Of a stretch of 64,000 nucleotides of DNA, positions 4,116-59,420 are shown piece after piece (the stretch's first letter is position 1; each line of letters begins with the position of its first letter). The notes beneath the pieces were generated by a model. That model saw only the letters and a program-made list of their open reading frames with translations, did not search any database and was not told the DNA's origin. The stretch spans positions 159 to 64,158 of the forward strand of contig JAJZGO010000002.1 of the NCBI GenBank assembly GCA_021798415.1, in the 5' to 3' direction. The position numbers and the translations under genes were made by a program. This stretch comes from Thermoplasmata archaeon. Lineage in GTDB: Archaea; Thermoplasmatota; Thermoplasmata; Lutacidiplasmatales; UBA184.

Positions 4116-5864
4116 TCAGACGGCCCCCGACCAGGCCCCGGGAAGCCGGCCGGTCGAGCGGATCTCGGCGAGCGACGCGTGGACGACGCCTTCCCGAGCC
4201 TCATGGGCGACCACCTCCTCGGCGGCGCCCACGGGCACCGACCGGGGGCCCTCCTCGGGAACCGGGTGCCCCGAAAAGCGCAGGATGACGAGCGGGGCGA
4301 AGATCATCGGCACGAGCCAGACCCCGTTGAAGACCGTGGCGAGCGGGTTGAACAGGACCATGCCCGCGAGCAGCGCTCCGTCGAGCGCGAGGGCGTAGCG
4401 CGAGATCGAGAGGACTTCGCCGAGGCCGAGCGCCGCCTCGCTCTTCGGCGTCACGGGCACCTGGCCGAGGCGCCGTCGCAATAGGGCGACCATGCTGATC
4501 GCCTCGTACGGCAGCGAGACCGCGCTCACCGCCGCGCTCAGCCAGCGGTGGCGCCAGTAGGTGCCCCACCCGATCCCGCATTGCCGGTAGACGAGCACGG
4601 TCGGGATCGTCGAGACGACTCCGACCACGAGCAGGAACCGGAAGAGCGGGATCGACCAGAACGTCGTGAGGGGATGGGCCGCGAATTGTCCGAGGAAGGC
4701 GAGCGCGGCGGCCGGGGTCGACGCGAACCCGTAGACGGTGAGGAGCATCCCGAGCGGCAGGATGAGGTTCGTGAAGTGTCCCAGCGGGGTCTGCCAGAGG
4801 TGGAACTTCCGCGAGCGGCTCAGGTTCGAGCGGCGCGAAAACTCGATGAACTCCATCGCGCCGCGGGTCCACTTGTTCTGGCGCTTGATGAACCCGCGGA
4901 CGTTCTCGGGCATCGCCTCGTAGGTGTGCAACGGGACAAAGCGGGAGTGCCACCCCCGGTCGGCGAGGGCGACGGCCGTCGCGAAGTCCTCGGAAACGTA
5001 CCCCTCGACGAAGCCTCCGATCGTGTCGACCGCCGCGCGTCGCACCAGGCAGTTGTGACCGTAGCAGAAGACCGTGTCGAGCGCGTTCGCGAGCCGGCTC
5101 TCCCACACGAACTGGCCGACCCGGGACATCGGGGCGAGCGTCTGGACGAACCGGGTGTCGAAGTTCCAGATGTTGACGAGTCCCTGGAAGATCCCGACCC
5201 GGGCCTGGGCGGGGTGTTCGGCGTACTTGAGCGCTTCTCGCACCCAGTCGGAGGGCAGGAAGGAGTCCGAGTCGAGCAGGACGAAGTACTCGTACGCGGC
5301 CCCGTGACGGGCGTACCAATCGTTGATCGCCCCGGCTTTGAAGCCGCGGCGCTCGGGGCGGCGGAGCACCGTGTACCCCCGTTCCCCCGCGATCCGATCG
5401 ACGACCTCCCGGGCCGCGGGCTCGCTCGAGTCGTCGAGCACGTAGACGTCCACGGGGTAGTCCTGGTGGATCGCGCGCAGGCACTCCGGCACGACGTCGT
5501 TCATCGTGGCGTAGAGGACCGCGACCTTCGGTCGGGTCGCGAGCTCCGCGAGCGCGGGGAGGTCCCCGTGGCGGCTCACGAGCGCGACGACCTGACGGGC
5601 GAGCCCGTACGCCGCCCCCACGAACAGCGCGGCGAGGACCCCGAAGAGCGCGATCGACGCGGGGTGGCTCCACCGGATGACGAAGAACGCCATGCTCCCG
5701 ACGAGGGTCGCGTAGATCCCCGCGAACAGCCCGTAGAAGAGACGGCGGACCCCGGGAAGGTTCGGAGGGGCGCCCTCGTAGCGGATCGGCACGGCGTTGC
5801 CGGGCCGGTCGGGCGGCAACCGGCCCGCGAGCGGACCCGAGAGCAATCGCCGCGTTCCTGGCAT
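4116..5864 (-). CDS. Membrane-embedded processive GT2 glycosyltransferase (cellulose synthase / OpgH-like)
   Basis: GT-A core with DDSSEP, DSDS and ED motifs plus a QNKWTRG (QxxRW-like) motif. Multiple TM helices at both ends. The promoter-like conserved 35-bp element sits 27 bp upstream on this strand. Confidence 0.8.
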   Translation of the reverse strand: MPGTRRLLSGPLAGRLPPDRPGNAVPIRYEGAPPNLPGVRRLFYGLFAGIYATLVGSMAFFVIRWSHPASIALFGVLAALFVGAAYGLARQVVALVSRHGDLPALAELATRPKVAVLYATMNDVVPECLRAIHQDYPVDVYVLDDSSEPAAREVVDRIAGERGYTVLRRPERRGFKAGAINDWYARHGAAYEYFVLLDSDSFLPSDWVREALKYAEHPAQARVGIFQGLVNIWNFDTRFVQTLAPMSRVGQFVWESRLANALDTVFCYGHNCLVRRAAVDTIGGFVEGYVSEDFATAVALADRGWHSRFVPLHTYEAMPENVRGFIKRQNKWTRGAMEFIEFSRRSNLSRSRKFHLWQTPLGHFTNLILPLGMLLTVYGFASTPAAALAFLGQFAAHPLTTFWSIPLFRFLLVVGVVSTIPTVLVYRQCGIGWGTYWRHRWLSAAVSAVSLPYEAISMVALLRRRLGQVPVTPKSEAALGLGEVLSISRYALALDGALLAGMVLFNPLATVFNGVWLVPMIFAPLVILRFSGHPVPEEGPRSVPVGAAEEVVAHEAREGVVHASLAEIRSTGRLPGAWSGAV

Positions 5865-5890
5865 CGGGCTCGCATGGGGCCGAGGACTCT

Positions 5891-5930
5891 ACCTCGGTTT
5901 TGGCGCAAGGCCCGTAACGATTGGTGCGGG
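5891..5930 (-). promoter_or_regulatory. Conserved ~35-bp cis-element copy B (reverse orientation, upstream of the GT2 gene)
   Basis: The reverse complement reads GCCCGCACCAATCGTTACGGGCCTTGCGCCAAAACCGAGG. It is about 33/37 identical to copy A at 6831-6870, with its A-rich end about 27 bp from the ATG at 5864. Confidence 0.6.
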
Positions 5931-5980
5931 CCCCGTATTCGAGGGAAAGTCACTTACCTTCTCGGACGCGTGGGGGCCGC

Positions 5981-6271
5981 ATGGACCTTCTTACGGTCTT
6001 CCTCGCGGTCGTCCTCGCCGGATTATCGGCCACCCTCTCCGGGATCGGCGTCGCGGCGGCGTCGCGCTACCGCGACCCGAGGCTCGCGCTCGTCTCGGCC
6101 GGGCTCGCGGTCCTCGCCGTCGTCGGCGGCCTCGACGTCTTGAACCAGGTGTCGCCGCGCTACGGCGAACCGTTCGAGGTCGCGCCGGTGCCGCTCGGGC
6201 TGACGGTGCTAGCGGTCGCGCTCCTCTACGTCGCGCTCGTCCGGGGCGCCGCACGGACCCCATCCCCGTAG
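5981..6271 (+). CDS. Small 3-TM membrane protein (cassette copy A), translationally coupled to the downstream regulator
   Basis: MDLLTVFLAVVLAGLSATLSGIGVAAASRYRDPRLALVSAGLAVLAVVGG...TVLAVALLYVALV has three hydrophobic helices. The stop at 6271 is 1 nt before the regulator ATG at 6273. It is paralogous to 13555..13833. Confidence 0.55.
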   Translation: MDLLTVFLAVVLAGLSATLSGIGVAAASRYRDPRLALVSAGLAVLAVVGGLDVLNQVSPRYGEPFEVAPVPLGLTVLAVALLYVALVRGAARTPSP

Positions 6272-6272
6272 C

Positions 6273-6797
6273 ATGGAGGGACTGGTCGCGCAGCCCACCC
6301 GCCGGAAGATCGTTGACGTCGTCACCGATCACCCGGGGTCGAGCGCGCGTGAAGTGCAGCGGCGGGCCTCGCTCGGCTGGGGCGAGACCGCGTACCACTT
6401 AGACCAGCTCACGCGGGCCGGGGCGCTGCGTCGCGAGCGCGGCGGCCGCCGCGACTACTACTTCCCTTCGACGATGACCTGGGAGGACCGACGGCTGTTC
6501 CAGGTCCTCCGCAGCGGGACCGAGCGACGGCTGTTGCTCGAGCTGAGCGCGCGGCCCGGCCGCACGCTCGCCGAGCTCAAGGAGGCGACGGGGCTCAGCC
6601 TCTCCACGACCTCCTTTCACCTGCGCCACCTGCTCGCGCAGAGTGCGGTCGAGGGGTTCCGGGACGGGCACCTCCGCCGCTACCGTCCGACGCGCCCGGA
6701 ACGGGTCGCCGCCCTCGTGACGCGGTACCGCGAGTCGTTCGAGGACCGGCTCGTCGACCGGTTCGTGGAGGCCTGGAGCGGCCTCCTCGGAGCGTGA
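6273..6797 (+). CDS. Tandem winged-HTH (ArsR-like) transcriptional regulator, cassette copy A
   Basis: Two repeats of an ArsR-type wHTH, REVQRRASLGWGETAYHLDQLTRAGALRRER and LAELKEATGLSLSTTSFHLRHLLAQSAVEG. It is a clear paralog of 13837..14364. Confidence 0.75.
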   Translation: MEGLVAQPTRRKIVDVVTDHPGSSAREVQRRASLGWGETAYHLDQLTRAGALRRERGGRRDYYFPSTMTWEDRRLFQVLRSGTERRLLLELSARPGRTLAELKEATGLSLSTTSFHLRHLLAQSAVEGFRDGHLRRYRPTRPERVAALVTRYRESFEDRLVDRFVEAWSGLLGA

Positions 6798-6830
6798 GTC
6801 GATGAAGGGACGCTCTGGGCTTCGCACCAA

Positions 6831-6870
6831 CGGTTACGGGTCTTGCGCCAAAAGGGAGGTATCTCGACGA
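6831..6870 (+). promoter_or_regulatory. Conserved ~35-bp cis-element copy A (upstream of the surface-protein gene)
   Basis: TTCGCACCAACGGTTACGGGTCTTGCGCCAAAAGGGAGGT. The A-rich end (CCAAAAG) is about 26 bp upstream of ATG 6889, the spacing of an archaeal TATA box on a leaderless mRNA. The upstream 20 bp are conserved in copies B and C. Confidence 0.6.
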
Positions 6871-6888
6871 CGTCCGTGGTCGAACGTG

Positions 6889-7878
6889 ATGCCGGGTACC
6901 GGGAAACCCCTTCTGACGGCGATAGCGCTCGCCGTCGCGCTCACGATTTCGCTCGTCGGGGCCGTCGGACCGGCCATCGGTCACGGCCTCCCCGCGGCTT
7001 CGAACCGCGCCGGAGCGGCCGCGTTCTCCCTGACGAACGGTCTCGTTCGAGCTGACTTTCCGACGGCGGCGCCGTCGTTCACGCTCACGTCGGTCGCGAA
7101 CGCATCGCTCGGGCTCTCGCAGTCCCTCGGCGGGCTCGCCGAGGTGAACGGCACCGGCTACATCGTCGCCTTCGCTCTCTTCGGCGGCCCCGGGGTCGCC
7201 TGGAGCGGGTCGACCGGGGGCTCGTCCGCGTCGACCTGGGTGCATCTCGCGGCGGCCGTGCCGGCCCGTCTCGCGAGCGGCGAGTGGGAGTCGGGGGACG
7301 ACGCGCAGGAAGGCGGGAACTCCTCCCTCGGCTCGGTGAACGTCTCCCTGACGTTCACCCTGAACAGCTCGTCGGGCCCCTCGCCCACGACCGTCGGGTA
7401 CCTGCTCAACGTCACGGGCTGGCCGTGGATTTCCACGCTGGATTCCCTCGGGGTCGAGGTCCTCACGAACACGAGCGGGCCGTCCGGGTACTGGCAGTCG
7501 AACGGGGCCAACTCGATCACCGAACGCTCGAGCACGACCGGCGGCACCGTCGCGACGTACGCCTGGGGGACGTCCGCGACCGCGACGTACGCGAGCGGCC
7601 AGGAGTCGGACAGTTCCGTAGGGGCGTACCACAACGTCTCGACGAACCGGCAGAGCTCGCTCGTCCGCCTCGACTTCGGCACCGTGACCGGGGGGTACCG
7701 CTCGCTCGGCTACGACCCTTGGCTCACCCTCGTGGTCGGCAGCCCCCTCTCCCGTCTCGTGCCCGCCTGGCTCTTGGGCCCGGACGCGCTCGTCACGATC
7801 GGCGCCGGTACGGCGCTCTCGATCGCCCTCGCGGCGGTCGCGCTCCGGCGGCGCCGGGCGCCCGAGAGCGAGCTCTGA
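6889..7878 (+). CDS. Secreted Ser/Thr/Gly-rich surface protein with C-terminal TM anchor (cassette copy A)
   Basis: Signal peptide MPGTGKPLLTAIALAVALTISLVGAVGPA. Many N-x-S/T sequons (NASL, NGTG, NSSL, NVSL, NSSS, NVTG, NTSG). C-terminal TM LVTIGAGTALSIALAAVAL followed by RRRR. The ORF track's earlier ATG at 6802 would include the conserved element, so the start is uncertain. Confidence 0.65.
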   Translation: MPGTGKPLLTAIALAVALTISLVGAVGPAIGHGLPAASNRAGAAAFSLTNGLVRADFPTAAPSFTLTSVANASLGLSQSLGGLAEVNGTGYIVAFALFGGPGVAWSGSTGGSSASTWVHLAAAVPARLASGEWESGDDAQEGGNSSLGSVNVSLTFTLNSSSGPSPTTVGYLLNVTGWPWISTLDSLGVEVLTNTSGPSGYWQSNGANSITERSSTTGGTVATYAWGTSATATYASGQESDSSVGAYHNVSTNRQSSLVRLDFGTVTGGYRSLGYDPWLTLVVGSPLSRLVPAWLLGPDALVTIGAGTALSIALAAVALRRRRAPESEL

Positions 7879-8261
7879 GCCCGAAAGTCACGCCTCGCAC
7901 GCCTCGCCTGCCTCCGTGGGGGCGAGCGTGCGCTTCTCGTTCGTCCCGGCACCGCGAGCCCTTGGGAGACCAGCATCGCGCCCAGGGCCAGACGCCCGAC
8001 AATGGGCCCGAGGTAGGCGAACCAGAAGTAGGATCCCGGCGGCGATCGCGGGCCGCCCACCCGGATCCGGAAGGCGCTTCCGGTCTCCACGCCCGCCCGT
8101 GACGAGGACGGCCCCGAGAACGTAGGGGCCGATCCCGATCAGCATGCGGTTCCTTTCGCATTTTCTGGCAAGATGCGTCCTCCGGGACGGAGGGGACGGC
8201 CGAGGAGGTCGGCATCCTCTGTCGCGACGCGGAGCCGGCGAGGCGAGGGGGACGTCTCCCG

Positions 8262-8711
8262 CTAGCGGGGGCGGTGTTCCCGCCCGCCCCGAACGACGAG
8301 GACCGGGCACGGAGCCTCGTTGACGAGCCCGGAGGAGACGCTTCCGAGGAGGAGGCGGGACCCGCGGGAGAGCCCCCGCGAGCCCACCACGACGAGGTCC
8401 TGGGGGTGCCGGTCCAACCACTCGAGGAGCGCGCGGAGCACGTCGCCCCACAGGAAGACGGTCTCGACCTTGGTGGCGCCCCGGGCGATGGCCTTCTCCC
8501 GTACCTCGTCGAGGATCGTCGCCATGGCGCGCCCGTCGTCGTCGAGCGGGACGAGCCCCTCGAGATACGGGTCGGCGGACGGCCGACGCGCCGGCCGCAC
8601 CACGACGAGGGTGAGCGAGGAGCGGAAGCGGGCCGCGAGCTCGCTCGCCACCTGGCAGGCGCGTCGGGCCTCGCGCGACCCGTCGAAGCCGACAAGGATC
8701 CGGTCGAGCAT
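8262..8711 (-). CDS. Universal stress protein (UspA family)
   Basis: ILVGFDGSREARRA...LVVVGSRGLSRGSRLLLGSVSSGLVNEAPCPVLVV is the canonical Usp fold motif. Confidence 0.85.
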   Translation of the reverse strand: MLDRILVGFDGSREARRACQVASELAARFRSSLTLVVVRPARRPSADPYLEGLVPLDDDGRAMATILDEVREKAIARGATKVETVFLWGDVLRALLEWLDRHPQDLVVVGSRGLSRGSRLLLGSVSSGLVNEAPCPVLVVRGGREHRPR

Positions 8712-8898
8712 CCGTTCTCAACTTCCCAAGTCGACGAACGCTCTTGAGCCGGCGGGCCGCACGTCCCGGACCGGACCGCGAGCGGAGCCCGGGCCCCCAC
8801 CTCGGCCCGGGGTCAGAAGGACCTCCCCCGGGTCCTCGCGGGCCCGGGGTCGGGAAGAAAGGGTTGGTGCCGTAGACCGTCGACCGAGCGAAGCCCCT

Positions 8899-11800
8899 CT
8901 ACGACGTCGGAGGCTTGTCCGGGCCTTCGCTCCAGGTGTTCGAACCCGAGCTCCCGCTCGCGGGCGAGCCGGGGCTGCTCGCGCCGGCCGGAGGCGTCCA
9001 AGCCTCGGGGGGCGACGACGGGGGCGTCGACTTGCCTCCTCCGCGGCGGAGGAAGAGCGCAATCAGCCCGACGACGAGCGCGATCACCGCGACCAGGAGC
9101 GCGAGCGCGAAGTAGTTGTTGAGGTCCGACTTCGTCGCGAGCGGCGCCGGGTTCGACGGCGAGTACATCCCCGAGATGCTGGTCGACTGGCCGGCCACGG
9201 TCACGCTGCCGTTCCCGCCCTTCACGTTGAAGCCGCCGACCGAGCCGAGCGCGTAGGTGAACGTTCCGTTCGGCTCGTAGAAGACGAGCGTCGTTCCCGA
9301 GGTCGACTGGGTCACGCCGTTGACGGTCGCGTTCCAGCTCGTCCCGCCCGGGAGGCCTCCCTCGCTGACGGTGACCGCGTAGGTCAACCGCGAGAAGGTC
9401 ACCCCGACCAGATAGGCGTTCGGTCCCGCAGCGACCGTCCCGGTCGACGGGGACGCCGCATAGCCGGGCACCGGTCCGACCGCGTAGGGGTAGCTGCCCA
9501 TCGGCACCGAGAAGGCGATCGACGCCGCCGAGGAGGTCTCGGCGATGCCGTCGAAGTTCACGGCCCAGCTCGTCCCGGCCACGAGGCCGGTCTCGTTGAA
9601 CGTGACCGTGAACATCTGGTACTCGTCCGGACCGATCGGGTAGTAGTCCCACACGCCGCTCGACACGTAGTACGGGGCGAGGACGCCGTACGAGGTGTAC
9701 GTGTGCCAGTCCGCCCAGTAGTTGCCCACGCCGTTGAGGTCGAACGAGTTGTAGACGTAGCTCCACGCCTGGACGTGCGTGGGGTCGTAGGTGCGGGTGG
9801 CGCCGTTGTCGCCCACGAAGTTGTTGTTGTAGACGAGGTTCCCTTCCCCGTAGGCGATGTAGACCCCGAAGCTCGAGTCGCCGACGAACGAGCTTCCCGT
9901 GACCAGGTTCGACTGGGCGTTCTCGTTCATCTCGACACCGACCACGTCGTGGAACGCTCCGATGTTCGAGAGCGTGGCGTACTCGGTTCCGTTCAGGAGG
10001 ACCCCGAACTCTCCACCGGTTGCGTTGACGTTCGAGAAAGTGACGCTTCCCGTGAGCGCCGTACCCGACCCGCCATCGTAGACGGCGGCGGGGTAGGTGG
10101 TCGCGGTGACGTTCGACACGGTCGTCAGGCTATCGAGGGTCGTCACGACCGCGGCCAGGGCGGGCGCGCCGAAAGTAGTGAACACGAACCCCGGCGCCCA
10201 GGGCCCGGAAAGGGTCGCGTTGCTCGCCGTGACCCCGTTCACGCTCGCGTCGGTGTCCTGGTTGAGCCCGACCGCGAGCGACTGGCCCGAGACCGTGGTC
10301 TGGTCGACGGTGACCCAGGACGAACCGAGCGCGAAGACCCCGACCGAGCCGTCCGAGGCCGTGGTCCCGCGCACGTTCACGTTGTGGGAGCCTTGGATGA
10401 TGGTGCCGACGTCTTGGCCCGAGACCGTGACCGTCGTCACGTTCACGTCCGTAGACGCCAGGATCACCGAGCCCACGCTCGCGGGTCCGGCGGCCGAGAT
10501 CCCCGAAAGGGAGACGAACGAGGAGCCCGAGACGAGCGCCGCCTGGCTTCCCGTGGTCGCGTTGACGCTCGAAACGTTGACCCATTCGGAACCGAGCACC
10601 GCCACGCCGGAACTCGAGTTCTCGGCGGTGAGGCCCGTGAGCGTCCCCGACATGAAGTTCTCGAACACGACGCCCGTGCTGCCGTTCGCCACGACGTTCG
10701 AGACCGAGGCGCTCGAGCCCCCGAGGAAGCCGACCGCGATGGGGCTCCCGTTCGTGGCGGTCACACCGTTAACCGAGCTCGTCGTAACGCCGTACCCGAC
10801 GACCCCCGCGGAGCTGCTCGCGTGGACGGTCGTGACGGTGAGGCCGATCCCTCCGGTCGCGTAGACAGCCTCCGAACCGGTCTCGGACGATACGCCGCTC
10901 AGGGTGGTGGCGTTGGCCCAGAAACCGTCGAACCCGACCGAACCGAAGGAGGCGCTCAGGGTGGTGAACGTCCCCGCCGAGCCGCCCTCGTCGAAGACGG
11001 CCGCGGAGCCGAACTCGGCGGTAAAGTTGGTCCCGACCGCATCGGCGGAGGCGATCACGCTGAACACCGCCGCGCCGAAGCCCGAGACCGAGTTCGTCAC
11101 GGTCGTGTGCGGCGAGGCGGCGGCCCAGACTCCGAACGAGTCGTCCTGGGACACGACGTTCGAGATGCTCGCCCCGGTGTCGTTCCAGAGAGAAATCGCT
11201 CCTCCCTGGACCACCCCGGCGGGGATCAGGACGCCGGCCAGGTTGAGGTTCGAGAAGGCATCGTTCGTCCCGTCGTAGACCACATACTGTTGACCGAGGT
11301 ACGGAATGTTCCCGGTGTACCCGAACGGCGACTGGAACCACTGGGTGATCCCGTGCCAGTTGGGCCCGACGTAGACGTTGTTGATGTCGACCGCCGCCGA
11401 GAACCCGCTCGCCTGCACAAGGCTGAAGGTCGGGAAGCCCCAGTCGTTCAATCGATTGAACGTGAGGTTCACACGCACCTCGAGATTCTTGAAGGTGTAC
11501 GGGGCGCTCGCGCTACCCCCGACCGCGGCGGCCAACGCGGACGCCTGAGCGGCCGACCCCATGTAGAGGGGTGCGTCCAAGACCGCGGGAGCGGCGACCA
11601 TCGTGACCGTGTCGGTGGTCGATGCCGAGAACGGCGTGCCGGCGAACTGATGGTAGCCATCGGCGAACACCGTGAAGTTGTAGCCGAAGAGCACCGGCGG
11701 CAGGTAGGTGCTGACGGTCCCCGATAGGTCCGTCGGCGCCCAGCTGAAATTGTACGTCTGGGCGAGAGCAGGACCGACGAAGACGAAGCCGTAGCTCGGC

Positions 11801-13146
11801 GTCACGTGCGCCGTGAAGTGGATGCTCCCGCTGCCGGTCTGGAGGGTGTTCCAGAGCCCGTAGAGCAGCGAGGGACCGGTCGTGACGTTCTCGGTCGCGC
11901 CGAACCACGTGCTGGCCACCCCGACCGCGGTCTCGCCGGTGTCGCCACCGTAGTCGAATGCGGCCGGGACCCCGGAGTAGGTCGGGCCGACCTGGCGCAT
12001 CAGGTTCAGGCTGCCGTTCACCGAGTTGATGACGGCGTTCGAGCCCGCGCCCGGGCCGGTGAAGACGAGCTCGGAGTCGTAGAACGCGCCGATCGGCGTC
12101 GCCGTGTTGCCGTTCACCAGGAAGTCCGCGGGCAGCGGGGGTGCGATGGAGTTGAAGACCACCGTGTCGTAGACGCCCGCGAAAACGTGGCCCGGTTCCG
12201 TGACCCGGTAGCCGAACGTCACCTGGCTGCGTCCGCTCGGGTTGTTCGAGACGTTGTTGTAGAGGGCGATCGTGACCGGGAACGCGAGGGGCATCGTGGG
12301 CCCGAGGTCGTAGTAGAACTGGCCCGAGACGAACGTCCCGTTGAAGGAGTACAGCGTCCCGGGGTTCAGCGAGGGGCCCGAGAAGTTCCAGACGTTGTCG
12401 ATGAACTGGAGCTGGTGGCCCGAGAAGTCGATGACGTTCTGGGTCCAGAATGCCGCCGTGGTCGAGCCGGGGATCGAGACGTTGGTCGTCACGGTGTTGA
12501 GCTGGACGCCCGACTGGTACGGGCTCGACGCTTGGTTGGCGGGGAGTCCGTTCCAGTAGTACCCACCGGTGTCTTCGTAGAGCTGACCGGCGGTCGCGTT
12601 GTAGCTGTTGAGCGTGAATTGGCCGTCAAAGGAGGGGGTCCAGTACTGGTAGGGGCCGCCCGAACCGATCCCGAGGTCCCCCACGCCCATCGGGGCCGGA
12701 GAGGCCGTGTAGAACGGGCTGATCAGCTGGCCAGGGTTCGAAGCGGGGTGGGCGAGGAGATTGTAGTTCGGAAGGTACGCCGCGTAGGACGGCACTCGGC
12801 CCGTGGAGATCGAGTTCAGGACGCTCGTGACGGTCGAGGTCGCCGCGAGACCCGCGGTCGACTGGGGAGATGCGCCGGGAGAACCGGGCGAATAGTGCCC
12901 CGGGGAAAAGGGCGTCGAGGTCGGCACGGTCGGGGACGAGCCTTTCGCGGCGGCGAAGTTCCCGCCCCATGGGGTCGAGCCTACGGCCGCCGAGTGAACG
13001 CCCGACCCGCTCGCGCTCGTCTGGGACGACCCCGCGATGGACTGGGCGCCGGCAAACGCCCCGGCGGGCAGCACCATCAACGCGGCGATTACGAAAACGA
13101 TCGGCAATGCCCAGACTGCTTTCCGTACGGACGGCAACGCGGCCAT
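8899..13146 (-). CDS. Giant (1415 aa) secreted right-handed beta-helix repeat surface protein with C-terminal TM anchor
   Basis: N-terminal signal peptide WALPIVFVIAALMVLPAGAFA. Long tracts of degenerate roughly 22-residue repeats rich in N/G/S/T/V (NVTTVTVSGQDVGTIIQGSHNVNVRGT...) typical of a parallel beta-helix or pectate-lyase fold. More than 40 N-x-S/T sequons. C-terminal TM ALALLVAVIALVVGLIALFL followed by RRGGGK and a Pro/Ser tail. Confidence 0.8.
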   Translation of the reverse strand: MAALPSVRKAVWALPIVFVIAALMVLPAGAFAGAQSIAGSSQTSASGSGVHSAAVGSTPWGGNFAAAKGSSPTVPTSTPFSPGHYSPGSPGASPQSTAGLAATSTVTSVLNSISTGRVPSYAAYLPNYNLLAHPASNPGQLISPFYTASPAPMGVGDLGIGSGGPYQYWTPSFDGQFTLNSYNATAGQLYEDTGGYYWNGLPANQASSPYQSGVQLNTVTTNVSIPGSTTAAFWTQNVIDFSGHQLQFIDNVWNFSGPSLNPGTLYSFNGTFVSGQFYYDLGPTMPLAFPVTIALYNNVSNNPSGRSQVTFGYRVTEPGHVFAGVYDTVVFNSIAPPLPADFLVNGNTATPIGAFYDSELVFTGPGAGSNAVINSVNGSLNLMRQVGPTYSGVPAAFDYGGDTGETAVGVASTWFGATENVTTGPSLLYGLWNTLQTGSGSIHFTAHVTPSYGFVFVGPALAQTYNFSWAPTDLSGTVSTYLPPVLFGYNFTVFADGYHQFAGTPFSASTTDTVTMVAAPAVLDAPLYMGSAAQASALAAAVGGSASAPYTFKNLEVRVNLTFNRLNDWGFPTFSLVQASGFSAAVDINNVYVGPNWHGITQWFQSPFGYTGNIPYLGQQYVVYDGTNDAFSNLNLAGVLIPAGVVQGGAISLWNDTGASISNVVSQDDSFGVWAAASPHTTVTNSVSGFGAAVFSVIASADAVGTNFTAEFGSAAVFDEGGSAGTFTTLSASFGSVGFDGFWANATTLSGVSSETGSEAVYATGGIGLTVTTVHASSSAGVVGYGVTTSSVNGVTATNGSPIAVGFLGGSSASVSNVVANGSTGVVFENFMSGTLTGLTAENSSSGVAVLGSEWVNVSSVNATTGSQAALVSGSSFVSLSGISAAGPASVGSVILASTDVNVTTVTVSGQDVGTIIQGSHNVNVRGTTASDGSVGVFALGSSWVTVDQTTVSGQSLAVGLNQDTDASVNGVTASNATLSGPWAPGFVFTTFGAPALAAVVTTLDSLTTVSNVTATTYPAAVYDGGSGTALTGSVTFSNVNATGGEFGVLLNGTEYATLSNIGAFHDVVGVEMNENAQSNLVTGSSFVGDSSFGVYIAYGEGNLVYNNNFVGDNGATRTYDPTHVQAWSYVYNSFDLNGVGNYWADWHTYTSYGVLAPYYVSSGVWDYYPIGPDEYQMFTVTFNETGLVAGTSWAVNFDGIAETSSAASIAFSVPMGSYPYAVGPVPGYAASPSTGTVAAGPNAYLVGVTFSRLTYAVTVSEGGLPGGTSWNATVNGVTQSTSGTTLVFYEPNGTFTYALGSVGGFNVKGGNGSVTVAGQSTSISGMYSPSNPAPLATKSDLNNYFALALLVAVIALVVGLIALFLRRGGGKSTPPSSPPEAWTPPAGASSPGSPASGSSGSNTWSEGPDKPPTS

Positions 13147-13554
13147 GTCGGTCTTTCGTGGCTCGTTCGACTATACAAACCTAGGTGCGGCTCAGGAAAC
13201 GCCGGCACGTGGCCGGCCCCCAGGGTGCCCGCGGGTCGGCCGCGCGCCGGGCCGAGATAAGGAATCGAGCCTCGCCGGCCTTAAGCCGGCCTGGGGAGCT
13301 TTCCGACCGGGACTCTGGGGTCGCTGGAGGACCCGCCCGCCTCCCAAGGCGGATGTCGAACGCCCAGGGTCCGGAGGGTACCGACCCCGACCGCCCGCTC
13401 CCGAACCCCGGACGTGGTTCTCGGAAACTACCGAACGCGGATGCGGGCCGAGGTCCGCCGAGTAGGGTCGGTCCCTCACGAGCGTTCCGGGTCGCCCGGC
13501 CGATGTGATCGGCCGCGAACCAACTCCTTAAGCCGCGGGGCCTTCTCGGGGCCC

Positions 13555-13833
13555 GTGAGCCTCCTCGAGCTCTTCGTCGTGGTCCTGGTGACCGGCGTGG
13601 CGCTCCTGAACGCGGGGGTGCCGCTCGCCGCGTGGGCCCGCTCCCGGGACGGCCGCTTCGTCCTCTTGGCGGGAGGGAACCTCGCTCTCGCCGCATTGGG
13701 GGGCCTTTGGCTATGGGGTCAGCTTCCGGGAAGCCCTCCGCCGTATACCGAAGTCCAGCTGCCCGCGTTGTCGATCGTATTGGTCGCGGTTCTCCTCGGC
13801 CTGGCGGCCACCCTCTGGCCCCGTCATGTCTGA
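13555..13833 (+). CDS. Small 3-TM membrane protein (cassette copy B), coupled to the downstream regulator
   Basis: GTG 13555 gives VSLLELFVVVLVTGVALLNAGVPLAAWARSRDGRFVLLAGG...IVLVAVLLGLAATLWPRHV, which aligns along its length with 5981..6271. CTTAAG lies 25 bp upstream. The stop at 13833 is 3 nt before the regulator ATG at 13837. The ORF track starts earlier at 13414 with a non-hydrophobic extension. Confidence 0.5.
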   Translation: MSLLELFVVVLVTGVALLNAGVPLAAWARSRDGRFVLLAGGNLALAALGGLWLWGQLPGSPPPYTEVQLPALSIVLVAVLLGLAATLWPRHV

Positions 13834-13836
13834 GCG

Positions 13837-14364
13837 ATGGAGGAAGACCCCCTCGCTCTCGAAACGCGGCGTCGGCTGTACGAGGCGGTGCGGATGGCCC
13901 CGGGCACCGGGGCCCGCGAGGTCCAGCGCCGTGTCGGTACCGGTTGGGGCGAAACGGTGTACCACCTCGATCGTCTGACGACGTCCGGGCTGCTCCATCG
14001 GGAACGCTCGGGATATCAGGACCATTACTTCGTCGCGACGGTCCCTCTCGCGGACCGAAGCCTTCTCAAGATCACCCGCTCCCGTTCGGCGCGCCGACTT
14101 CTGATCGCCCTCCTCGAAGCCCCGGGGTCGACCGTCCCGGACCTCGAGACGCGCACCGGACTGAGCGAGGGCCGTCTCTCCGTCCATCTCCGGCGACTGG
14201 CGGAGATAAGGGTGGTGCGGACGGGACGCGCCGGCCGGCTGCGCACCTTCGAGCTCACCGACCGTGAGCGAGTCCTCCGGACGCTCGTCGCCTTCCGCCG
14301 AGGGTTCGCCGACGAGTGGATCGAGCGTACCCTCGAGACGTGGTCGGAGCTCTTTCGTCCGTAG
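13837..14364 (+). CDS. Tandem winged-HTH (ArsR-like) transcriptional regulator, cassette copy B
   Basis: AREVQRRVGTGWGETVYHLDRLTTSGLLHRER and VPDLETRTGLSEGRLSVHLRRLAEIRVVR. It is about 40% identical to 6273..6797 along the full length. Confidence 0.75.
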   Translation: MEEDPLALETRRRLYEAVRMAPGTGAREVQRRVGTGWGETVYHLDRLTTSGLLHRERSGYQDHYFVATVPLADRSLLKITRSRSARRLLIALLEAPGSTVPDLETRTGLSEGRLSVHLRRLAEIRVVRTGRAGRLRTFELTDRERVLRTLVAFRRGFADEWIERTLETWSELFRP

Positions 14365-14372
14365 CGCCGTCG

Positions 14373-14415
14373 GGTTCGGACCAACGGCTTACGGTCTTGG
14401 ACCAAAAGCAGGGAC
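14373..14415 (+). promoter_or_regulatory. Conserved ~35-bp cis-element copy C (upstream of the second surface-protein gene)
   Basis: TTCGGACCAACGGCTTACGGTCTTGGACCAAAAGCAGGGAC aligns with copy A with only a few substitutions and indels. It lies about 26 bp upstream of the candidate GTG start at 14441. Confidence 0.55.
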
Positions 14416-14440
14416 AAGGGGAACGCCCTGCTCTCCTCCG

Positions 14441-15433
14441 GTGGCCGACCGACGAACGCCCCACGGAAGTCGCCGCCGAGGCCGGTGGGACTTCCGGGCG
14501 TTCTTCGGGGTCGCCGCGACCGCGCTTGTCCTCGCGGTCACGCTCGTGCCGTTCGGGTCGGGATCCTCGCTGGGGGCGGACTGGTCCTCGACCACGCTCG
14601 CCTGGAGCAACGGCGTGACCCAGTGCATCTTCGTCCCCGGTGCCCCGACGGTCGCCGTGTCGGCGATGAGCCTCGCCGGCTCGGGTCTCTCGACGACCCT
14701 CACGTCTCTCGACGAGGTCACCGCGTCCGGCAACCTCACCGCGGTGGCGGCCCTCTCTTCGGCGACATGGAACTCGACGAACCTCAGCGGCCCGGATCGG
14801 TTCGACATGGCCTACGCCGCGGACGTGCTGATCGTCTCCCCGGTCAATCCCGCGCGGGTCCTCGGCTCGGTCGGTCTGCGAGTGGACTACCTCCTTCCCG
14901 CCTACGCGGATTCCCCTGGCGTCAACCTCCGTAACGTCACTCAGGAGGTCACCATCACGGACTGGACGTGGCAGGGAGCCGGCGACCGGCTCGCCCTTGG
15001 TGTCTCCCTTTGGCCGACGTTCACCGCGCTGGAACGTCTCACCGCCCCTTCGCCAACGAGCTATTCGGTGACGAGCGTCGAGGTCCAAACTGGGGAACCG
15101 CGGGAGTCCGTGGACCTCGGTCGGTCGGCCAACATCAGCCTCCCCGCAAATGGGACCGCGCTGGTTCCCGTTACCCCCGAGGTCCAGATCGCGGGGCAGG
15201 GCACCTACGCCTCGGTCGGCGTGTGGGTCGGCGCCGTCGCCGGAGAGTTCCGGTCGCTCTCGTACGTGTCGGTCATCTCGCTTCCCGTGCCCAAGACCCT
15301 CGCGGGACTTCCGCTCTACGACTACGCGGCCGTGGGCGGAGCGGGATTGGTCGCCGTGGCCGCGCTCGCTCTGACGGCGCGCCGAGTGCGCCGGAGACCT
15401 TCCGACCTCACCTTCGTGGAGGAGCAACTGTGA
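14441..15433 (+). CDS. Secreted Ser/Thr-rich surface protein with C-terminal TM anchor (cassette copy B)
   Basis: A GTG 14441 start gives a basic n-region plus hydrophobic core FRAFFGVAATALVLAVTLVPFG. Sequons NLTA, NSTN, NLSG, NVTQ, NISL, NGTA. C-terminal TM AVGGAGLVAVAALALTA followed by RRVRRR. The ORF track start at 14264 overlaps the regulator and is less likely. Confidence 0.6.
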   Translation: MADRRTPHGSRRRGRWDFRAFFGVAATALVLAVTLVPFGSGSSLGADWSSTTLAWSNGVTQCIFVPGAPTVAVSAMSLAGSGLSTTLTSLDEVTASGNLTAVAALSSATWNSTNLSGPDRFDMAYAADVLIVSPVNPARVLGSVGLRVDYLLPAYADSPGVNLRNVTQEVTITDWTWQGAGDRLALGVSLWPTFTALERLTAPSPTSYSVTSVEVQTGEPRESVDLGRSANISLPANGTALVPVTPEVQIAGQGTYASVGVWVGAVAGEFRSLSYVSVISLPVPKTLAGLPLYDYAAVGGAGLVAVAALALTARRVRRRPSDLTFVEEQL

Positions 15434-15653
15434 ACGACGGGGGAACGGTGGAGAAGAAGCAGGCCGACGATCGTGCGATTGCCGTGGACGAGCGAGAGCG
15501 GAGATCCCATTCGGATTCACCTTCCGGGCCTCCTCCCGCCCAAGCTTCCCGCCCCCACGGGTCGATCATCCTTCGGAGGGTCTTCGACACCTTGCGCGGC
15601 GGCCGCCGACCGCGACGCGGCCCGGTGACGGACCCGGCCCCATGGGAGGTCCC

Positions 15654-16292
15654 ATGACCGTCTCGAACGGTCGGATCGTTCCCCGGTCGGCGGGACTCCT
15701 ACGGACCCTGCTGATCGTCGGGGTGGTCGTTGGGTTGCTCGCACTCCCGCTTGCCTTGGGCCTCGATCCCACGACGCCGAGAGGTCCCCAGGAGCTTGCG
15801 CCGGCGACCACGACTGCCATCAGCGTGCAGGTAACCTCGACGCTCAAATTCACGCCGGACGTGCTGGATGTCGTCCCGGGTGCCCTCGTTCAACTCGTCG
15901 TGATCCAGGAGGCGTCGATCCCCCACACTTTCGTCCTGTCGCCCGTCGCGAACTTCACGATCCCTGCGAACGACACGCCCGCCCAGCTCTTCGAGTTCTT
16001 CAATGCCCACCCACCCCTCGTGAACCTCAGCCTGCCGGGAACCCCGGGGGCCCGAGCGTACGCGAACTTCACGGCGCCGTCGGTCGGAACGTATGAGTTC
16101 GTCTGCGAGATCCCCGGGCATTTCCAGTCCGGGATGCACGGGATTCTGGTCTCGTCGGTCGCCGCTCCGTCGAACGGATCATCGACTCTCTTTACACCGA
16201 CCGTGCTCATCGTCCTCGGCGCCGTGGTGGTCGTGGTCGGAGTCGGTTCCGGCCTCGCTCTCTGGCGACGTTCGCGGCGCTCGCCCAAGTGA
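15654..16292 (+). CDS. Type-1 (blue) copper protein, halocyanin/plastocyanin-like cupredoxin, with N-terminal signal/TM and C-terminal TM anchor
   Basis: Copper site H...C-x2-H-x4-M: HTFVL...YEFVCEIPGHFQSGMHG. N-terminal hydrophobic LLRTLLIVGVVVGLLALPLALG. C-terminal TM LIVLGAVVVVVGVGSGLALW followed by RRSRR. Confidence 0.8.
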   Translation: MTVSNGRIVPRSAGLLRTLLIVGVVVGLLALPLALGLDPTTPRGPQELAPATTTAISVQVTSTLKFTPDVLDVVPGALVQLVVIQEASIPHTFVLSPVANFTIPANDTPAQLFEFFNAHPPLVNLSLPGTPGARAYANFTAPSVGTYEFVCEIPGHFQSGMHGILVSSVAAPSNGSSTLFTPTVLIVLGAVVVVVGVGSGLALWRRSRRSPK

Positions 16293-16344
16293 GGCCTGAT
16301 GGGCCAGGGGTCTTCGGGAAACGTGGCGGCACCGGAGGGATAGA

Positions 16345-18336
16345 TTGAGCGAAGGCCCAGGAGTCGTCGACGGGGGAGGCGCGGCCCGGCGGGCGGGCGA
16401 TGGGGGTACGGAGGCTCGCCTCGAGCTCGCGGGGGGAGTCGTAGCCTACAACGAAGAGGCCCACATCCAGCGGGCTCTGGAGTCGCTCCTGGCCCAAGAC
16501 CTTCCGGACGGGGTCCGCTGGGGGCAGATCTGGGTCGTCGCGAGCGGCTGCACGGACCGAACGGTCGAGATCGCCCGGGGAGTGGCCGCCCGCGACCCGA
16601 GGGTCATGGTCGTCGTCGAGCCGGAGCGGACCGGAAAGGCGCGGGCCCTTCGCGAGATCTTCCACCGCGCCCGGGGCCACGCGGTGGTGCTCCTGAACTC
16701 GGACGCCGAGGCGGCGCCGGGAGCCGTAGCCGAACTCCTTCGGCGCGCACGAGGGCACTCCCCTCCCTACGCCGTCATGGCCCGCCCCGTCGTGTCCCCC
16801 GACGCCCCGGGTCGCATGGCCCCGCTACTGCGATTGATGTGGGACCTCCATCACGAGTTCCATCTCCACCTCGCGTCGGAAGGCGGAGGAGCTCACCTCT
16901 CCGACGAGCTTCTCCTCGTCAGCCTCGACCCTCACCCGCCGCTTCCGGAGGGGATCGTCAACGACGGCTCGTACTTCGGGGTCTGGCTGGCGCAGCACGG
17001 AGGGCGACGACTCTACGCGCCCGGGGCCCGCGTGCAGATCGCGATCCCGACGCGACTCACGGACCACCTCCACCAGCGCCGGCGGATCCACGTCGGGAAC
17101 TCCCAGGTCACCGCGGCCCTCGGTCGACGGCCGAGCACCCTCGTGGGACACGCGCGGTCTACGCCGGGCGCGGTGGCGAGGGTGGTCCAGCGATCGGCGC
17201 GCCGTCAGACCCGGGGCTGGCGACGGTTCGTGGCGCTGACGGCCCTCGAGCTCGCGGCGGCTACCCTCTCCTTCTGGGACCGACTGCCCCCGCCGAAGGA
17301 CCACGTCCGCTGGCAGCGGATCCGACCCCCGGCTCCGCGAACCGCCCCTCGCTCGCTCTCGCGCGCTCGTCTCTCGCACAACGCGAGGGGACTGACCGCC
17401 CCGCCTCTCGAGCTGCGGGTAGCGACCTTGGTGGACGTGGCGGCGCGATTCGGGACGGGCATCGCGCTGCCGGACCTCATCTCCCTCCTCCCTCCCGACG
17501 GGCCCTTTACGCCGGGGGACACTCGGGGCTGGCTGGAAGGCCATCCCAGCCTCGCGCGAGTGGACGGTGACCTGGTCCTTGCCCCACGCGCGACCACGGT
17601 CGGGCAGGACGAGCGGCGGACCCGAGGAGAGGCGTCCCTTCGCCACGCGCTCGGGCTGTTCAACGGACCGCTTCGACCGACCCGCAATTGGGTTCGCTGC
17701 GTCTCCGTCACCGGCTCGGTCGCCTACGGCGAGCCGCAGCCGGAGGACGACCTGGACCTGTTCGTGGTCGTTCGAAAGGGGGCGCTTTGGTGGTTCCTGG
17801 GCTACACGTACCTGGCCCTGCGGATCGAGCGGTGGCGTCGGGGCCGCGGGTTCGGACCGGTCGCGTGCTTCAATTACACGATCGAGGACTCGACGGCCGC
17901 CGAGGCACTGACCGAACGCCGTGACTTCCTGACGGCCCGCGACGCGCTCTCGGCGAAGCCTATCCTGGGAGCGTCCTACTATCAGGGACTCCTCGCCCGC
18001 TGCCCGTGGATGGCCACCGAGATCCCGCGATTGTATGCGGTCCGCGCTCGACCTTCCGACGACCCCGATTCCCTCCCCGCGCCGATCGCGCTCCGGGTCG
18101 CGGACGCGGTCGTCTACCCTCTCCTCGCGACGTACCTTCAATTGGCCGGTCTCTGGAGGAACGCGCGGAATCGTTCCAACGAGACCGGGGCCTTCCGGAC
18201 GGTGACGCGATTGGGACGCATCGCCTTCGTTTCCCGTCGATTCGAGGCTCTCCGTTCCCAGTACGTGGAAGGGCGCGAGCCGTCGGAGGCATCGACGGGG
18301 GTAACGTATCCGTCGGCGCTCCCGTCCGCCCGATGA
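16345..18336 (+). CDS. GT2 glycosyltransferase fused to a C-terminal minimal (Pol-beta-type) nucleotidyltransferase domain
   Basis: N-terminal GT-A domain GGVVAYNEEAHIQRALESLLAQ...VLLNSDAE. C-terminal segment VTGSVAYGEPQPEDDLDLFVVV matches the G[SG]x9-13DxD nucleotidyltransferase signature. No in-frame stop separates the two domains. Confidence 0.7.
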   Translation: MSEGPGVVDGGGAARRAGDGGTEARLELAGGVVAYNEEAHIQRALESLLAQDLPDGVRWGQIWVVASGCTDRTVEIARGVAARDPRVMVVVEPERTGKARALREIFHRARGHAVVLLNSDAEAAPGAVAELLRRARGHSPPYAVMARPVVSPDAPGRMAPLLRLMWDLHHEFHLHLASEGGGAHLSDELLLVSLDPHPPLPEGIVNDGSYFGVWLAQHGGRRLYAPGARVQIAIPTRLTDHLHQRRRIHVGNSQVTAALGRRPSTLVGHARSTPGAVARVVQRSARRQTRGWRRFVALTALELAAATLSFWDRLPPPKDHVRWQRIRPPAPRTAPRSLSRARLSHNARGLTAPPLELRVATLVDVAARFGTGIALPDLISLLPPDGPFTPGDTRGWLEGHPSLARVDGDLVLAPRATTVGQDERRTRGEASLRHALGLFNGPLRPTRNWVRCVSVTGSVAYGEPQPEDDLDLFVVVRKGALWWFLGYTYLALRIERWRRGRGFGPVACFNYTIEDSTAAEALTERRDFLTARDALSAKPILGASYYQGLLARCPWMATEIPRLYAVRARPSDDPDSLPAPIALRVADAVVYPLLATYLQLAGLWRNARNRSNETGAFRTVTRLGRIAFVSRRFEALRSQYVEGREPSEASTGVTYPSALPSAR

Positions 18337-50528: not shown

Positions 50529-50601
50529 GAAGCCACTGGAGGGACTTGAACCCCCGACCTGCTGATTACGAATCAGCCGCTCTGCCGGCTGAGCTACAGT
50601 G
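50529..50601 (-). tRNA. tRNA-Thr (anticodon CGT)
   Basis: Hand-folded 73-nt cloverleaf: acceptor GCCACTG/CAGTGGC, D arm GCTC-AGCCGGCA-GAGC, anticodon arm GCTGA-TTCGTAA-TCAGC, variable loop AGGTC, T arm GGGGG-TTCAAGT-CCCTC, discriminator T. No encoded CCA. Confidence 0.8.
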
Positions 50602-50642
50602 GCAACCGTCAGGGTCCTTGCCCGAGTTTTCATAAGCTTGGC

Positions 50643-53483: not shown

Positions 53484-53738
53484 GAAAGGGGGGAAGGGCG
53501 CTTCGGCAAAAGGACCACGCGATACCGTCCGGGGCCTTCCGAGAAGCCTGGGATTCTCCTTTCGACGAGGCGCCCGGTGGGCGGTCGGGGCCGCGCGCGC
53601 CACCTTGACCGGACGGCTCCGACGTCCCCTCTCCGAGGACTTTCGACGCACATCCACCGTTCACTCTTTGACGGTACACGGACCCGGGGGTCGCGTCGTA
53701 AGTGCTACTAAGGTTCCGAGCAATGGGTACGAAGGTCG

Positions 53739-59012: not shown

Positions 59013-59083
59013 CCCGCGCTCACGACGCACGGCCACGGTTCACTTTCTGACGGTAGAAGGACCTGGGGGTCGCGTCGTACGTG

Positions 59084-59420
59084 CTACGTCGGACCCGGTT
59101 CGTACGTGATCTCGAATACCTTACCATCGGGCATCCGAAAGTGCTGCCATGCGTACCCACCGGGTCTGTCCCTATGGACCGGACCGAGAAGCTCGATCCC
59201 AGCGGCTTCTAGCTCTTCCCGGGCCCGGTCGATGTCGTCCACTCGGAAGCCGCACACGACCTCGTTGCGAGCAAACTGTTCCGGCGCGAGGGACATTTCG
59301 GACCGAAGATCTCAAACTTGTCCCCGTTCGGAAGCCGGTACACGACAAAGTCCGGGACTCGCGGACGGCCGAGTGTCCGAGAGTCTGTTCGGCGAGGTGC
59401 TTCATAGATTCGAACGCCTT
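59084..59420 (-). pseudogene. Second frameshifted VOC/glyoxalase-family pseudogene
   Basis: RVPDFVVYRLPNGDKFEIFGP (one frame) is followed by MSLAPEQFARNEVVCGFRVDDIDRAREELEAAGIELLGPVHRD...PDGKVFEITYEP (another frame). Both are VOC-like but no single frame spans them. Confidence 0.45.

Follow-up and report, generated by a model that had tools for sequence, protein, structure and literature searches.

A conserved cassette of a predicted tandem winged-helix regulator, a small membrane protein and a surface-protein candidate, with a candidate two-box operator, in uncultured Thermoplasmata

To our knowledge, very few transcription factor/operator pairs have been defined for Thermoplasmata or for other uncultured archaea. 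The ArsR/SmtB metalloregulators (SmtB, CzrA, CadC and HlyU) are small autoregulated repressors with operators that overlap promoters. In Haloferax volcanii a gene for a small multi-transmembrane protein is coupled to a regulator gene in the HVO_B0192/HVO_B0193 pair, the only pair of this kind with expression data; a single mRNA of about 1.08 kb, detected by Northern blot, covers both genes (PMC8406309), and both respond strongly in regulatory mutants (PMC8406309; bioRxiv 10.1101/2025.11.10.687552). Here we analyze a 64,000-nucleotide stretch of DNA from a Thermoplasmata archaeon (the window; G+C about 70%), which contains two paralogous gene cassettes. Each encodes a mini-protein with three transmembrane (TM) helices (mem), a predicted winged helix-turn-helix (wHTH) regulator and a surface-protein candidate (surf), and each carries a two-box DNA element of about 35 bp in front of surf. 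Copy B, the subject of this report, is on balance probably a self-contained regulator cassette with its own operator and promoter, controlling a small envelope regulon, and the 35-bp repeat is most likely, to judge from sequence comparison, the operator and promoter of the regulator itself. Copy A occupies 5981-7878.

A genome scan yielded 79 loci, and a tblastn comparison with all proteins of the window detected the mem-wHTH-surf trio in nearly all of them. All are from metagenome-assembled genomes (MAGs) of uncultured Thermoplasmata, including UBA184 and one Lutacidiplasmatales MAG, and to judge by the isolate names they come largely from soil and peat surveys. The loci were classified as B-type (41), deep-B (6), A-type (19) and more distant (19, referred to as “other”). 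The A-type and B-type cassettes form separate orthologous groups, with 55-98% identity within a group and about 44% between groups. The orthologs of wHTH-B are nearly all 175 aa long and those of wHTH-A 173-174 aa; among the 120 best regulator matches listed, identities ranged over 67-99% (B) and 51-95% (A), and every match with a named source comes from Thermoplasmata. mem-B, including the position of its start codon, is conserved in about 40 B loci. The two cassettes lie less than 10 kb apart only in the window, in its relative YP4.bin89 (a Thermoplasmata archaeon 97% identical over the cassette; locus L005) and in L053; elsewhere they are found on different contigs, and some genomes (YP1.bin27, Bin_56, clean1690) have three paralogs per MAG. 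The two copies have separate orthologs in dozens of Thermoplasmata MAGs; hence the duplication is old and has been followed by retention of both, which agrees with the preliminary description of this DNA, where copy B was regarded as a diverged paralog maintained by selection. The protein identity of about 40% quoted there applies to the regulator only (44.6%); for mem the value is about 33% and for surf about 26%, and the homology of surf-A and surf-B is backed by cross-matches of surf-A on B-type loci, for example with E = 1e-14 in L031.

Pairwise ratios of nonsynonymous to synonymous substitution rates (dN/dS) were calculated for the window versus L005. They are low for the regulators (0.08 for wHTH-B, 0.09 for wHTH-A) and for the membrane proteins (0.18 for mem-A, 0.21 for mem-B), and reach 0.23 for surf-A. 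A recent, strain-specific origin of copy B, or its decay into junk, might be supposed, in favor of which one may cite only the loss of a 72-aa gene downstream of surf-B, described below. However, B orthologs with 54-97% identity (wHTH-B) are present in at least 41 loci, with length, spacing and neighbors conserved; downstream of the cassette they are syntenic with the window, a gene for a 663-aa family 2 glycosyltransferase (GT2) following in about two dozen loci and a methyltransferase gene in several. The location of A and B on different contigs in most genomes and the purifying selection on mem-B and wHTH-B point in the same direction, so that decay or recent duplication has almost no probability. 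The comparison with related genomes rules out a strain-specific second copy. Copy B is therefore a genuine cassette, old and kept across many genomes, and a high-GC clade of uncultured Thermoplasmata has at least two such ancient paralogs.

The preliminary description placed a 35-bp element within the surface-protein gene. It lies instead between the wHTH stop and the surf start, in the putative promoter, and in copy B it ends 33 nt before the surf-B start codon, GTG 14441. The element consists of two direct (G/C)NCCAA boxes with ACCAA cores 21 nt apart, the second of which is followed by A4-5. The B-type consensus reads TTTGGACCAAyCGATTcCG-N2-cTTGGACCAAAAA-N2-GGGT and the A-type consensus CGCACCAACG-N2-T-N-CGGGgcTTGCGCCAAAA-N-cGA-N-GTATCC; information content is near its maximum at both boxes and low in the flanks. 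Exactly three copies without mismatch are present in the window, at 14379-14407 (+), 6825-6853 (+) and 5898-5926 (-), compared with a chance expectation of about 1.35 matches even when two mismatches are allowed. All three adjoin a cassette and none is located before the other approximately 50 genes. Among the related loci, the element follows the wHTH gene in 35 of 41 B, 6 of 6 deep-B and 16 of 19 A loci. Because it sits before both surf genes, the regulatory DNA must have been duplicated along with the genes, as had been proposed.

The distance from the A-tract of the element to the downstream start codon, considered over all loci, is usually 31-36 nt, whatever the gene and on either strand. 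The downstream open reading frame (ORF) is surf in 46 cases. In the others it encodes a GT2 of 575-583 aa (five genomes), a PKD-repeat protein of about 810-830 aa (six genomes), a P-loop protein of about 410-424 aa (three) or a TM protein of about 160 aa (two). In L031 the gene for a cupredoxin, which in the window follows surf-B, has been relocated 5 kb away and has its own B-type element 31 nt upstream. A single box is also found before mem-B, where most B orthologs have TTTG(G/A)ACCAAT-N3-TTAAAC at a constant distance from the GTG or ATG. The box is about 34 nt from the start codon, a geometry nearly equal to that at surf, and the mem-B/wHTH-B transcript would be leaderless.

The conservation of the element at the nucleotide level, together with its position between two co-oriented genes, would be compatible with a function as RNA, for example in termination or attenuation of the mem-wHTH operon, or as a structured 5' leader of surf. 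A search of 5500-16500 against Rfam at E<=1 gave no match, and RNAalifold on 22 B-type sequences returned a consensus of -1.07 kcal/mol with four pairs and 0 compensatory changes. Further, the element stands before divergently oriented genes in both orientations and keeps a set distance to the start codon. Its conserved patches (box 1, TTCCG/CGGG, box 2 and GGGT/GGTATC) recur every 10-11 bp or so, and this spacing of about 10.5 bp is that expected for one face of duplex DNA. With neither an Rfam match nor a consensus structure or covariation, we set the RNA explanation aside as very improbable.

We turn now to the protein that may read this element. wHTH-B matches PF24266 (HTH_HVO_0163_N) with 51.5 bits over residues 9-76 (cut-off 31), wHTH-A does so with 67.1 bits, and the orthologs carry the same domain. 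Residues 83-128 of wHTH-B match HTH_24 (31.1 bits, cut-off 21.9), MarR_2 (31.4, cut-off 27) and HTH_5 (23.8, cut-off 22). An AlphaFold2 model (pLDDT 88.8, pTM 0.79) places a first winged-helix domain, wH1, at 9-66 and a second, wH2, at 83-140, joined by a linker helix and followed by two less confidently modeled C-terminal helices at 143-172. wHTH-B is thus a predicted DNA-binding protein of the HVO_0163 type, in which PF24266 is combined with a second, ArsR/MarR-like wHTH domain. The domains form a fused tandem and not a single-domain homodimer in the manner of ArsR/SmtB. A Foldseek search against the PDB gave no match to the whole tandem (TMq <= 0.43), and wH2 matches crystal structures of ArsR/SmtB proteins (SmtB, CzrA and CadC).

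Among the paralogs the predicted recognition helix is invariant in wH1 (WGETxYHL) and differs in wH2, with GRLSVHLRR in B and STTSFHLRH in A. The boxes vary as well, B loci having G(G/A)ACCAA and A and other loci GC(G/A)CCAA. The change in the wH2 helix thus appears to parallel the change in the box, by lineage although not strictly one-to-one. It is this parallel, together with the linkage of the element to the cassette, that suggests the wHTH protein as the reader of the boxes.

Taken together, the data may be accommodated by the following scheme. The 3-TM mini-protein and the soluble tandem-wHTH protein would be expressed from a bicistronic and probably leaderless operon. surf would have a promoter of its own, embedded in the element of about 35 bp, with the boxes two helical turns apart and the proximal box abutting an A-rich TATA-like patch about 33 nt before the start codon, which also resembles the transcription factor B (TFB) recognition element (BRE). 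The tandem protein would bind the boxes and so, in a positive or a negative sense, autoregulate its own operon and control surf. Control may extend to genes that are chained to surf or bear the element, which would include a 72-aa Cys/His protein and the membrane-anchored cupredoxin in the B lineage, and the divergent GT2 glycosyltransferase and, in relatives, PKD-repeat surface proteins in the A lineage. The co-translated mem protein may modulate or tether the regulator upon an envelope signal, and the operator sequence would have diverged between the paralogs.

Several observations weigh against this scheme. No element was detectable in 6 B loci and in 13 of the 19 “other” loci. The correspondence of box type and paralog is imperfect, with deep-B and “other” loci sharing GCACCAA and A using both GCGCC and GCACC. 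The assignment of the element to this regulator is based on linkage and parallel sequence change only. The search for elements spanned 10 kb on either side of the cassettes, and the proposed size of the regulon applies to that span. On its cytoplasmic side the mem protein is predicted to expose only a loop of some 7 residues and a tail of 4 residues, and with almost no cytoplasmic surface, direct contact with the regulator is not obvious. The dN/dS values for surf-B (0.66) and the cupredoxin (0.59) are fairly relaxed. Finally, the proximal box is at the position expected for a BRE, and TFB rather than the wHTH protein could be its reader.

The last point leads to an explanation in which the element is a general or TFB-paralog-specific promoter module for envelope genes, read by basal factors, while the wHTH protein acts elsewhere. 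It would account naturally for the proximal box and A-tract, which occupy the place of a BRE/TATA about 33 nt ahead of start codons, and for the presence of the element before genes as unrelated as those for surf, GT2, the PKD proteins, the 160-aa TM protein and the P-loop protein; the same box sequence is common to some lineages. Nevertheless, in the window all three copies adjoin a cassette and none precedes any of the other genes, and the A and B boxes differ within one genome, which a single basal factor would not require. Neither the second box, exactly 21 bp farther upstream, nor the conserved TTCCG/CGGG patch that lies between the two belongs to the make-up of a BRE/TATA promoter. We consider the promoter-module explanation unlikely and favor the reading in which the element is the regulator's operator.

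The three co-oriented genes of copy B have the positions originally given for them. GTG 13555 had been proposed as the start of mem-B and is usable: the 67 mem proteins that were aligned share this start position, mostly with GTG and in several cases with ATG, and open with the pattern M-(G/D)-L-x-E-L-F. The stop and start of mem-B and wHTH-B are coupled as had been noted (TGA 13831-13833, then 3 nt, then ATG 13837), and the gap is exactly 3 nt in 38 of 39 B-type orthologs. The same coupling had been claimed for both copies, but in A the stop is TAG and a single nucleotide precedes the ATG. The CTTAAG upstream of GTG 13555 is present, with an equivalent TTAAA or TTAAG at the corresponding position in most B orthologs (Table 1). 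A conserved CTTCTCGG block said to be common to A and B does occur in both, but is separated by 18 nt from the ATG in A and by 5 nt from the GTG in B. Even the 97% identical L005 has CTTCCCGA in its place, and other orthologs lack it. Given this non-conservation and the unequal spacing, CTTCTCGG is probably a chance match and was rejected as a regulatory block. For surf-B a longer ORF, 14264-15433, is a high-GC over-extension that overlaps wHTH-B over its first 177 nt. The product in public gene calls (P0241, 330 aa) is identical to the translation from GTG 14441, and orthologs use the equivalent position; without this correction, ORF over-extension in DNA of 70% G+C would have hidden the true start.

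Table 1. Features of the two cassettes and adjacent genes in the window (functions predicted from sequence)
Feature	Position	Strand	Description
mem-B promoter (putative)	13517..13532	+	box GAACCAA 13517-13523 abutting TATA-like CTTAAG 13527-13532, 22 nt before GTG 13555
mem-B	13555..13833	+	92 aa; three predicted TM helices
wHTH-B	13837..14364	+	175 aa, soluble; two winged-helix domains and a C-terminal helical tail
B-type two-box element	14374..14412	+	TTCGGACCAA-N12-TTGGACCAAAAG; between wHTH-B stop and surf-B start
surf-B	14441..15433	+	330 aa; single-pass membrane glycoprotein candidate; conserved tail RRVRRRPSDLTFVEEQL
cupredoxin	15642..16292	+	216 aa; membrane-anchored, type-1; probably co-transcribed with surf-B
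mem-A	5981..6271	+	96 aa; 3 TM helices; paralog of mem-B
wHTH-A	6273..6797	+	174 aa; 44.6% identical to wHTH-B; 1-nt spacer after mem-A
A-type two-box element	6821..6861	+	CGCACCAA-N13-TTGCGCCAAAAG, then GGAGGTATC; before surf-A
surf-A	6889..7878	+	329 aa; paralog of surf-B; A-type orthologs 34-93% identical
second A-type element, inverted	5890..5928	-	ends 33 nt before ATG (5864) of divergent GT2 gene
GT2 glycosyltransferase	4116..5864	-	582 aa; synthase-like membrane domain; Pfam Glyco_trans_2_3; element-preceded; candidate member of A regulon

Downstream of surf-B the preliminary description recognized a blue copper protein with a signal peptide and a C-terminal anchor. The ORF matches Pfam Copper-bind (PF00127) with 23.2 bits (cut-off 21.2), has hydrophobic segments at its N and C termini, and contains the ligand loop CEIPGHFQSGM at 155-165 (C155-x4-H160-x4-M165) with an upstream His in IPHTF. 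It was called halocyanin-like, a label that finds no support, since no halocyanin model is among its NCBIfam matches, only generic cupredoxin models, and the protein is far below all cut-offs of the CopI, rusticyanin, sulfocyanin and plastocyanin models. In about 20 B-type loci the surf stop is overlapped by 4 nt by an ORF of 72 aa with a conserved C-G-H...H-x3-C pattern and no Pfam match (for example L001 11588-11806 and L004 11580-11801), and in seven loci the cupredoxin start overlaps the stop of this ORF, again by 4 nt. Because of this chain of 4-nt overlaps, surf, the 72-aa ORF and the cupredoxin gene form one translationally coupled operon behind the element in those seven loci. In the window a 75-aa ORF (15430-15657) likewise overlaps the surf-B stop by 4 nt; it was considered as the 72-aa gene and rejected, since its dN/dS versus L005 is 2.3 and it has no CGH motif, and a hidden Markov model of the 72-aa protein found no match in the window. 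For these reasons the 75-aa ORF was taken as non-coding, and the 72-aa gene has been lost in both the window and L005. The spacer between surf-B and the cupredoxin gene in the window is 208 nt long and has no element, and the two genes likely share a transcript.

The link to the cupredoxin is real, with seven relatives in which the genes are chained and L031 in which the cupredoxin has an element to itself. It is also facultative: the cupredoxin adjoins surf-B in only about 12 of 41 B loci, and the GT2 is the more constant downstream neighbor. The earlier proposal that the module relates to envelope redox proteins therefore describes only one facet of the cassette.

These findings bear on the possibility that the cassette is a metal-responsive (for example copper-responsive) repressor of the ArsR/SmtB type that switches copper proteins, with mem as a metal sensor or transporter. 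The similarity of wH2 to SmtB, CzrA and CadC would be in keeping with this idea, as would the score of wHTH-A on the NCBIfam HTH_metalloreg model (NF033788; 59.5 bits, cut-off 55), the cupredoxin that is chained to surf-B or carries its own element, and the Cys/His pattern of the 72-aa protein encoded between surf and the cupredoxin. wHTH-B, however, is below the metalloregulator cut-off, with 51.7 bits. The regulator has no conserved Cys or Met, its invariant His43 and His117 fall within the two recognition helices, and the mem alignment shows no conserved His, Cys or Met. Moreover, the cupredoxin is absent from most B loci, and A-type cassettes would instead control GT2 and surf. On this evidence a metal switch seems doubtful to us, and we retain the reading of copy B as a cassette for a broader envelope regulon.

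The TM helices of mem-B are predicted at about 1-28, 35-54 and 63-92. In Pfam the mem proteins match nothing above cut-off, with weak and scattered matches to DUF7471, DUF5985, a phage holin family and DUF7521, and membership in the holin, DUF7521 or DUF7471 families was accordingly rejected. The DUF7471 model (PF24283, cut-off 27 bits) is matched weakly by 6 of 28 mem proteins (best E 0.0058) and not by mem-B, and hhalign gives a probability of 6.5%.

surf-B has an N-terminal signal/TM segment, an all-beta ectodomain and a C-terminal TM helix, and the family has no Pfam match. By structural superposition the ectodomain is at most a candidate member of the galactose-mutarotase-like beta-supersandwich fold. 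In an exhaustive profile search, which was used to size the family, it comprises 238 clusters at 50% identity among 1.84 billion representatives; a word-indexed search with surf-B returned only 8 proteins. The members listed are about 300-420 aa long and matched over essentially their whole length, with some shorter, apparently truncated entries. The cytoplasmic tail that follows the C-terminal TM helix is strikingly conserved, as RRxRRRPSDLxYVEE in B and RRRRxPPExxL in A. In distant paralogs of about 380 aa (L048, L068, L073 and L074) the short acidic tail is replaced by a Cys-rich C-terminal extension, for example CPKCGRAMSV...ILQCEV, and this replacement suggests that the C-terminal end is functionally important. 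Separately, surf-B (14441-15433) and its counterpart in L005 (10605-11597) differ with a dS of 0.05, far below the 0.17-0.28 of the neighboring genes. This low value, in combination with the high dN/dS given above, could be the result of recombination or gene conversion in the recent past, or else of diversifying pressure acting on the surface protein.

The conserved tail invites a more elaborate version of the scheme, in which the three proteins would constitute a transmembrane signaling device, an archaeal counterpart of the surface-signaling anti-sigma systems. The surf ectodomain, a putative beta-supersandwich of the carbohydrate-binding type, would sense the state of the envelope or its glycans. 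The cytoplasmic tail of surf (the zinc-ribbon-like extension in distant paralogs) and the 3-TM mini-protein would hold or release the tandem wHTH regulator, which when freed would act on the two-box operator, tuning the expression of surf, glycosyltransferase and cupredoxin. Each paralogous cassette would then be an insulated channel with its own operator code. We regard this version as speculative and improbable, and return to the simpler one, an autoregulated cassette with its own operator.

On the A side, the GT2 encoded at 4116-5864 has weak matches to MdoH and cellulose-synthase-like models in addition to Glyco_trans_2_3. An element before a divergent GT2 gene recurs in L005, L050, L051 and L062. 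What might be taken for an inverted repeat flanking mem-A/wHTH-A consists of two outward-facing putative promoters, and it therefore does not mark the boundary of a mobile element. The element-preceded PKD proteins are encoded on the minus strand in L049, L052, L056, L057, L059 and L061. Their N-terminal domain contains HHQHIWCTIECGPGHGG, with a C-x3-C-G-x2-H spacing that recalls CuA sites; a CuA or cupredoxin domain in these proteins of about 820 aa was confirmed neither by Pfam nor by PDB sequence searches.

A few further features of the window may be mentioned. Between the two cassettes, at 8899-13146 (-), lies a gene for a 1415-aa membrane-anchored protein with a thermopsin peptidase domain and NosD-type beta-helix repeats, and one or two genes of the thermopsin/NosD type are also found upstream of the B-type cassettes in L001-L003. 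Above gathering score, Rfam matches the window only at 50531-50603 (-), where there is a single tRNA gene. Two copies of a 65-nt direct repeat, 86% identical to each other, lie in intergenic DNA at 53644-53708 and 59023-59087. One copy precedes an AlkZ-like glycosylase gene; the other follows an HxlR-type regulator gene and precedes an unannotated ORF of 739 aa. The repeat has no Rfam match, and its predicted fold is weak, with a best z of -2.3 for one copy read on the minus strand.

The cassette is a compact unit. Its candidate operator is sharply defined, its promoter geometry is fixed, and the paralogs of one genome provide natural “specificity swaps”; the cis-element is unusually clean and experimentally tractable. 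The comparison presented here would also supply a first regulatory context for three unannotated families, mem, surf and the 72-aa Cys/His protein.

As a whole, these results may be compared with the known systems as follows. The cupredoxin has in common with the archaeal membrane-anchored cupredoxins (halocyanin, sulfocyanin and plastocyanin-like) the PF00127 domain, the ligand loop and the anchors, a likeness that is generic at the level of the fold. With the ArsR/SmtB metalloregulators the cassette regulator shares its second winged-helix domain, which is recognizably of this type. It differs from them in having two such domains in one chain, in its obligatorily linked membrane partner, and in having no conserved metal-ligand Cys or His outside the recognition helices. 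The HVO_B0192/HVO_B0193 pair was considered as a haloarchaeal equivalent and rejected, because its architecture differs; the regulator gene comes first and encodes 123 aa with a single ArsR-like HTH, the TM partner belongs to DUF7521, and the pair is analogous rather than orthologous.

A closer likeness is found on haloarchaeal plasmids. In a tblastn comparison with plasmids, full-length homologs of the regulator with 30-40% identity were found on 40 haloarchaeal replicons, and literature searches returned no functional study of HVO_0163-type proteins or of DUF7471. Three DUF7471/HVO_0163-type pairs were inspected: Halobaculum halophilum HUG10_RS18930/18935, Haloarcula marismortui pHMA288 E6P14_RS02680/02675 and Halorussus vallis NGM07_RS20915/20910 (plasmid loci L084 3672-4507, L085 3683-4495 and L086 3642-4504). 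A small multi-TM protein is again encoded first, followed by a regulator of about 170 aa with the same two-domain architecture, aligned with the Thermoplasmata regulator over 94-97% of its length. The coupling is as tight, with a 4-nt overlap in two of the three loci and a 3-nt gap in the third. The TM partners have 95-117 aa; two score above the DUF7471 cut-off and one below it, whereas the Thermoplasmata mem proteins are below it, and two of the partners (L084 and L086) have an HH(F/L)xEH motif in a loop that is absent from the Thermoplasmata mem. Neither a surf-family gene nor a two-box element was found in the three loci. From the resemblance in gene position, protein size, TM-helix count and coupling, no more than distant homology, or analogy, between mem and DUF7471 may be proposed. 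The occurrence of such a membrane-protein/regulator pair in genetically tractable haloarchaea nevertheless makes the function of the mini-protein experimentally accessible. The cassette is not a new kind of system; it is probably of the autoregulated archaeal wHTH type, built from protein families that are catalogued but uncharacterized.

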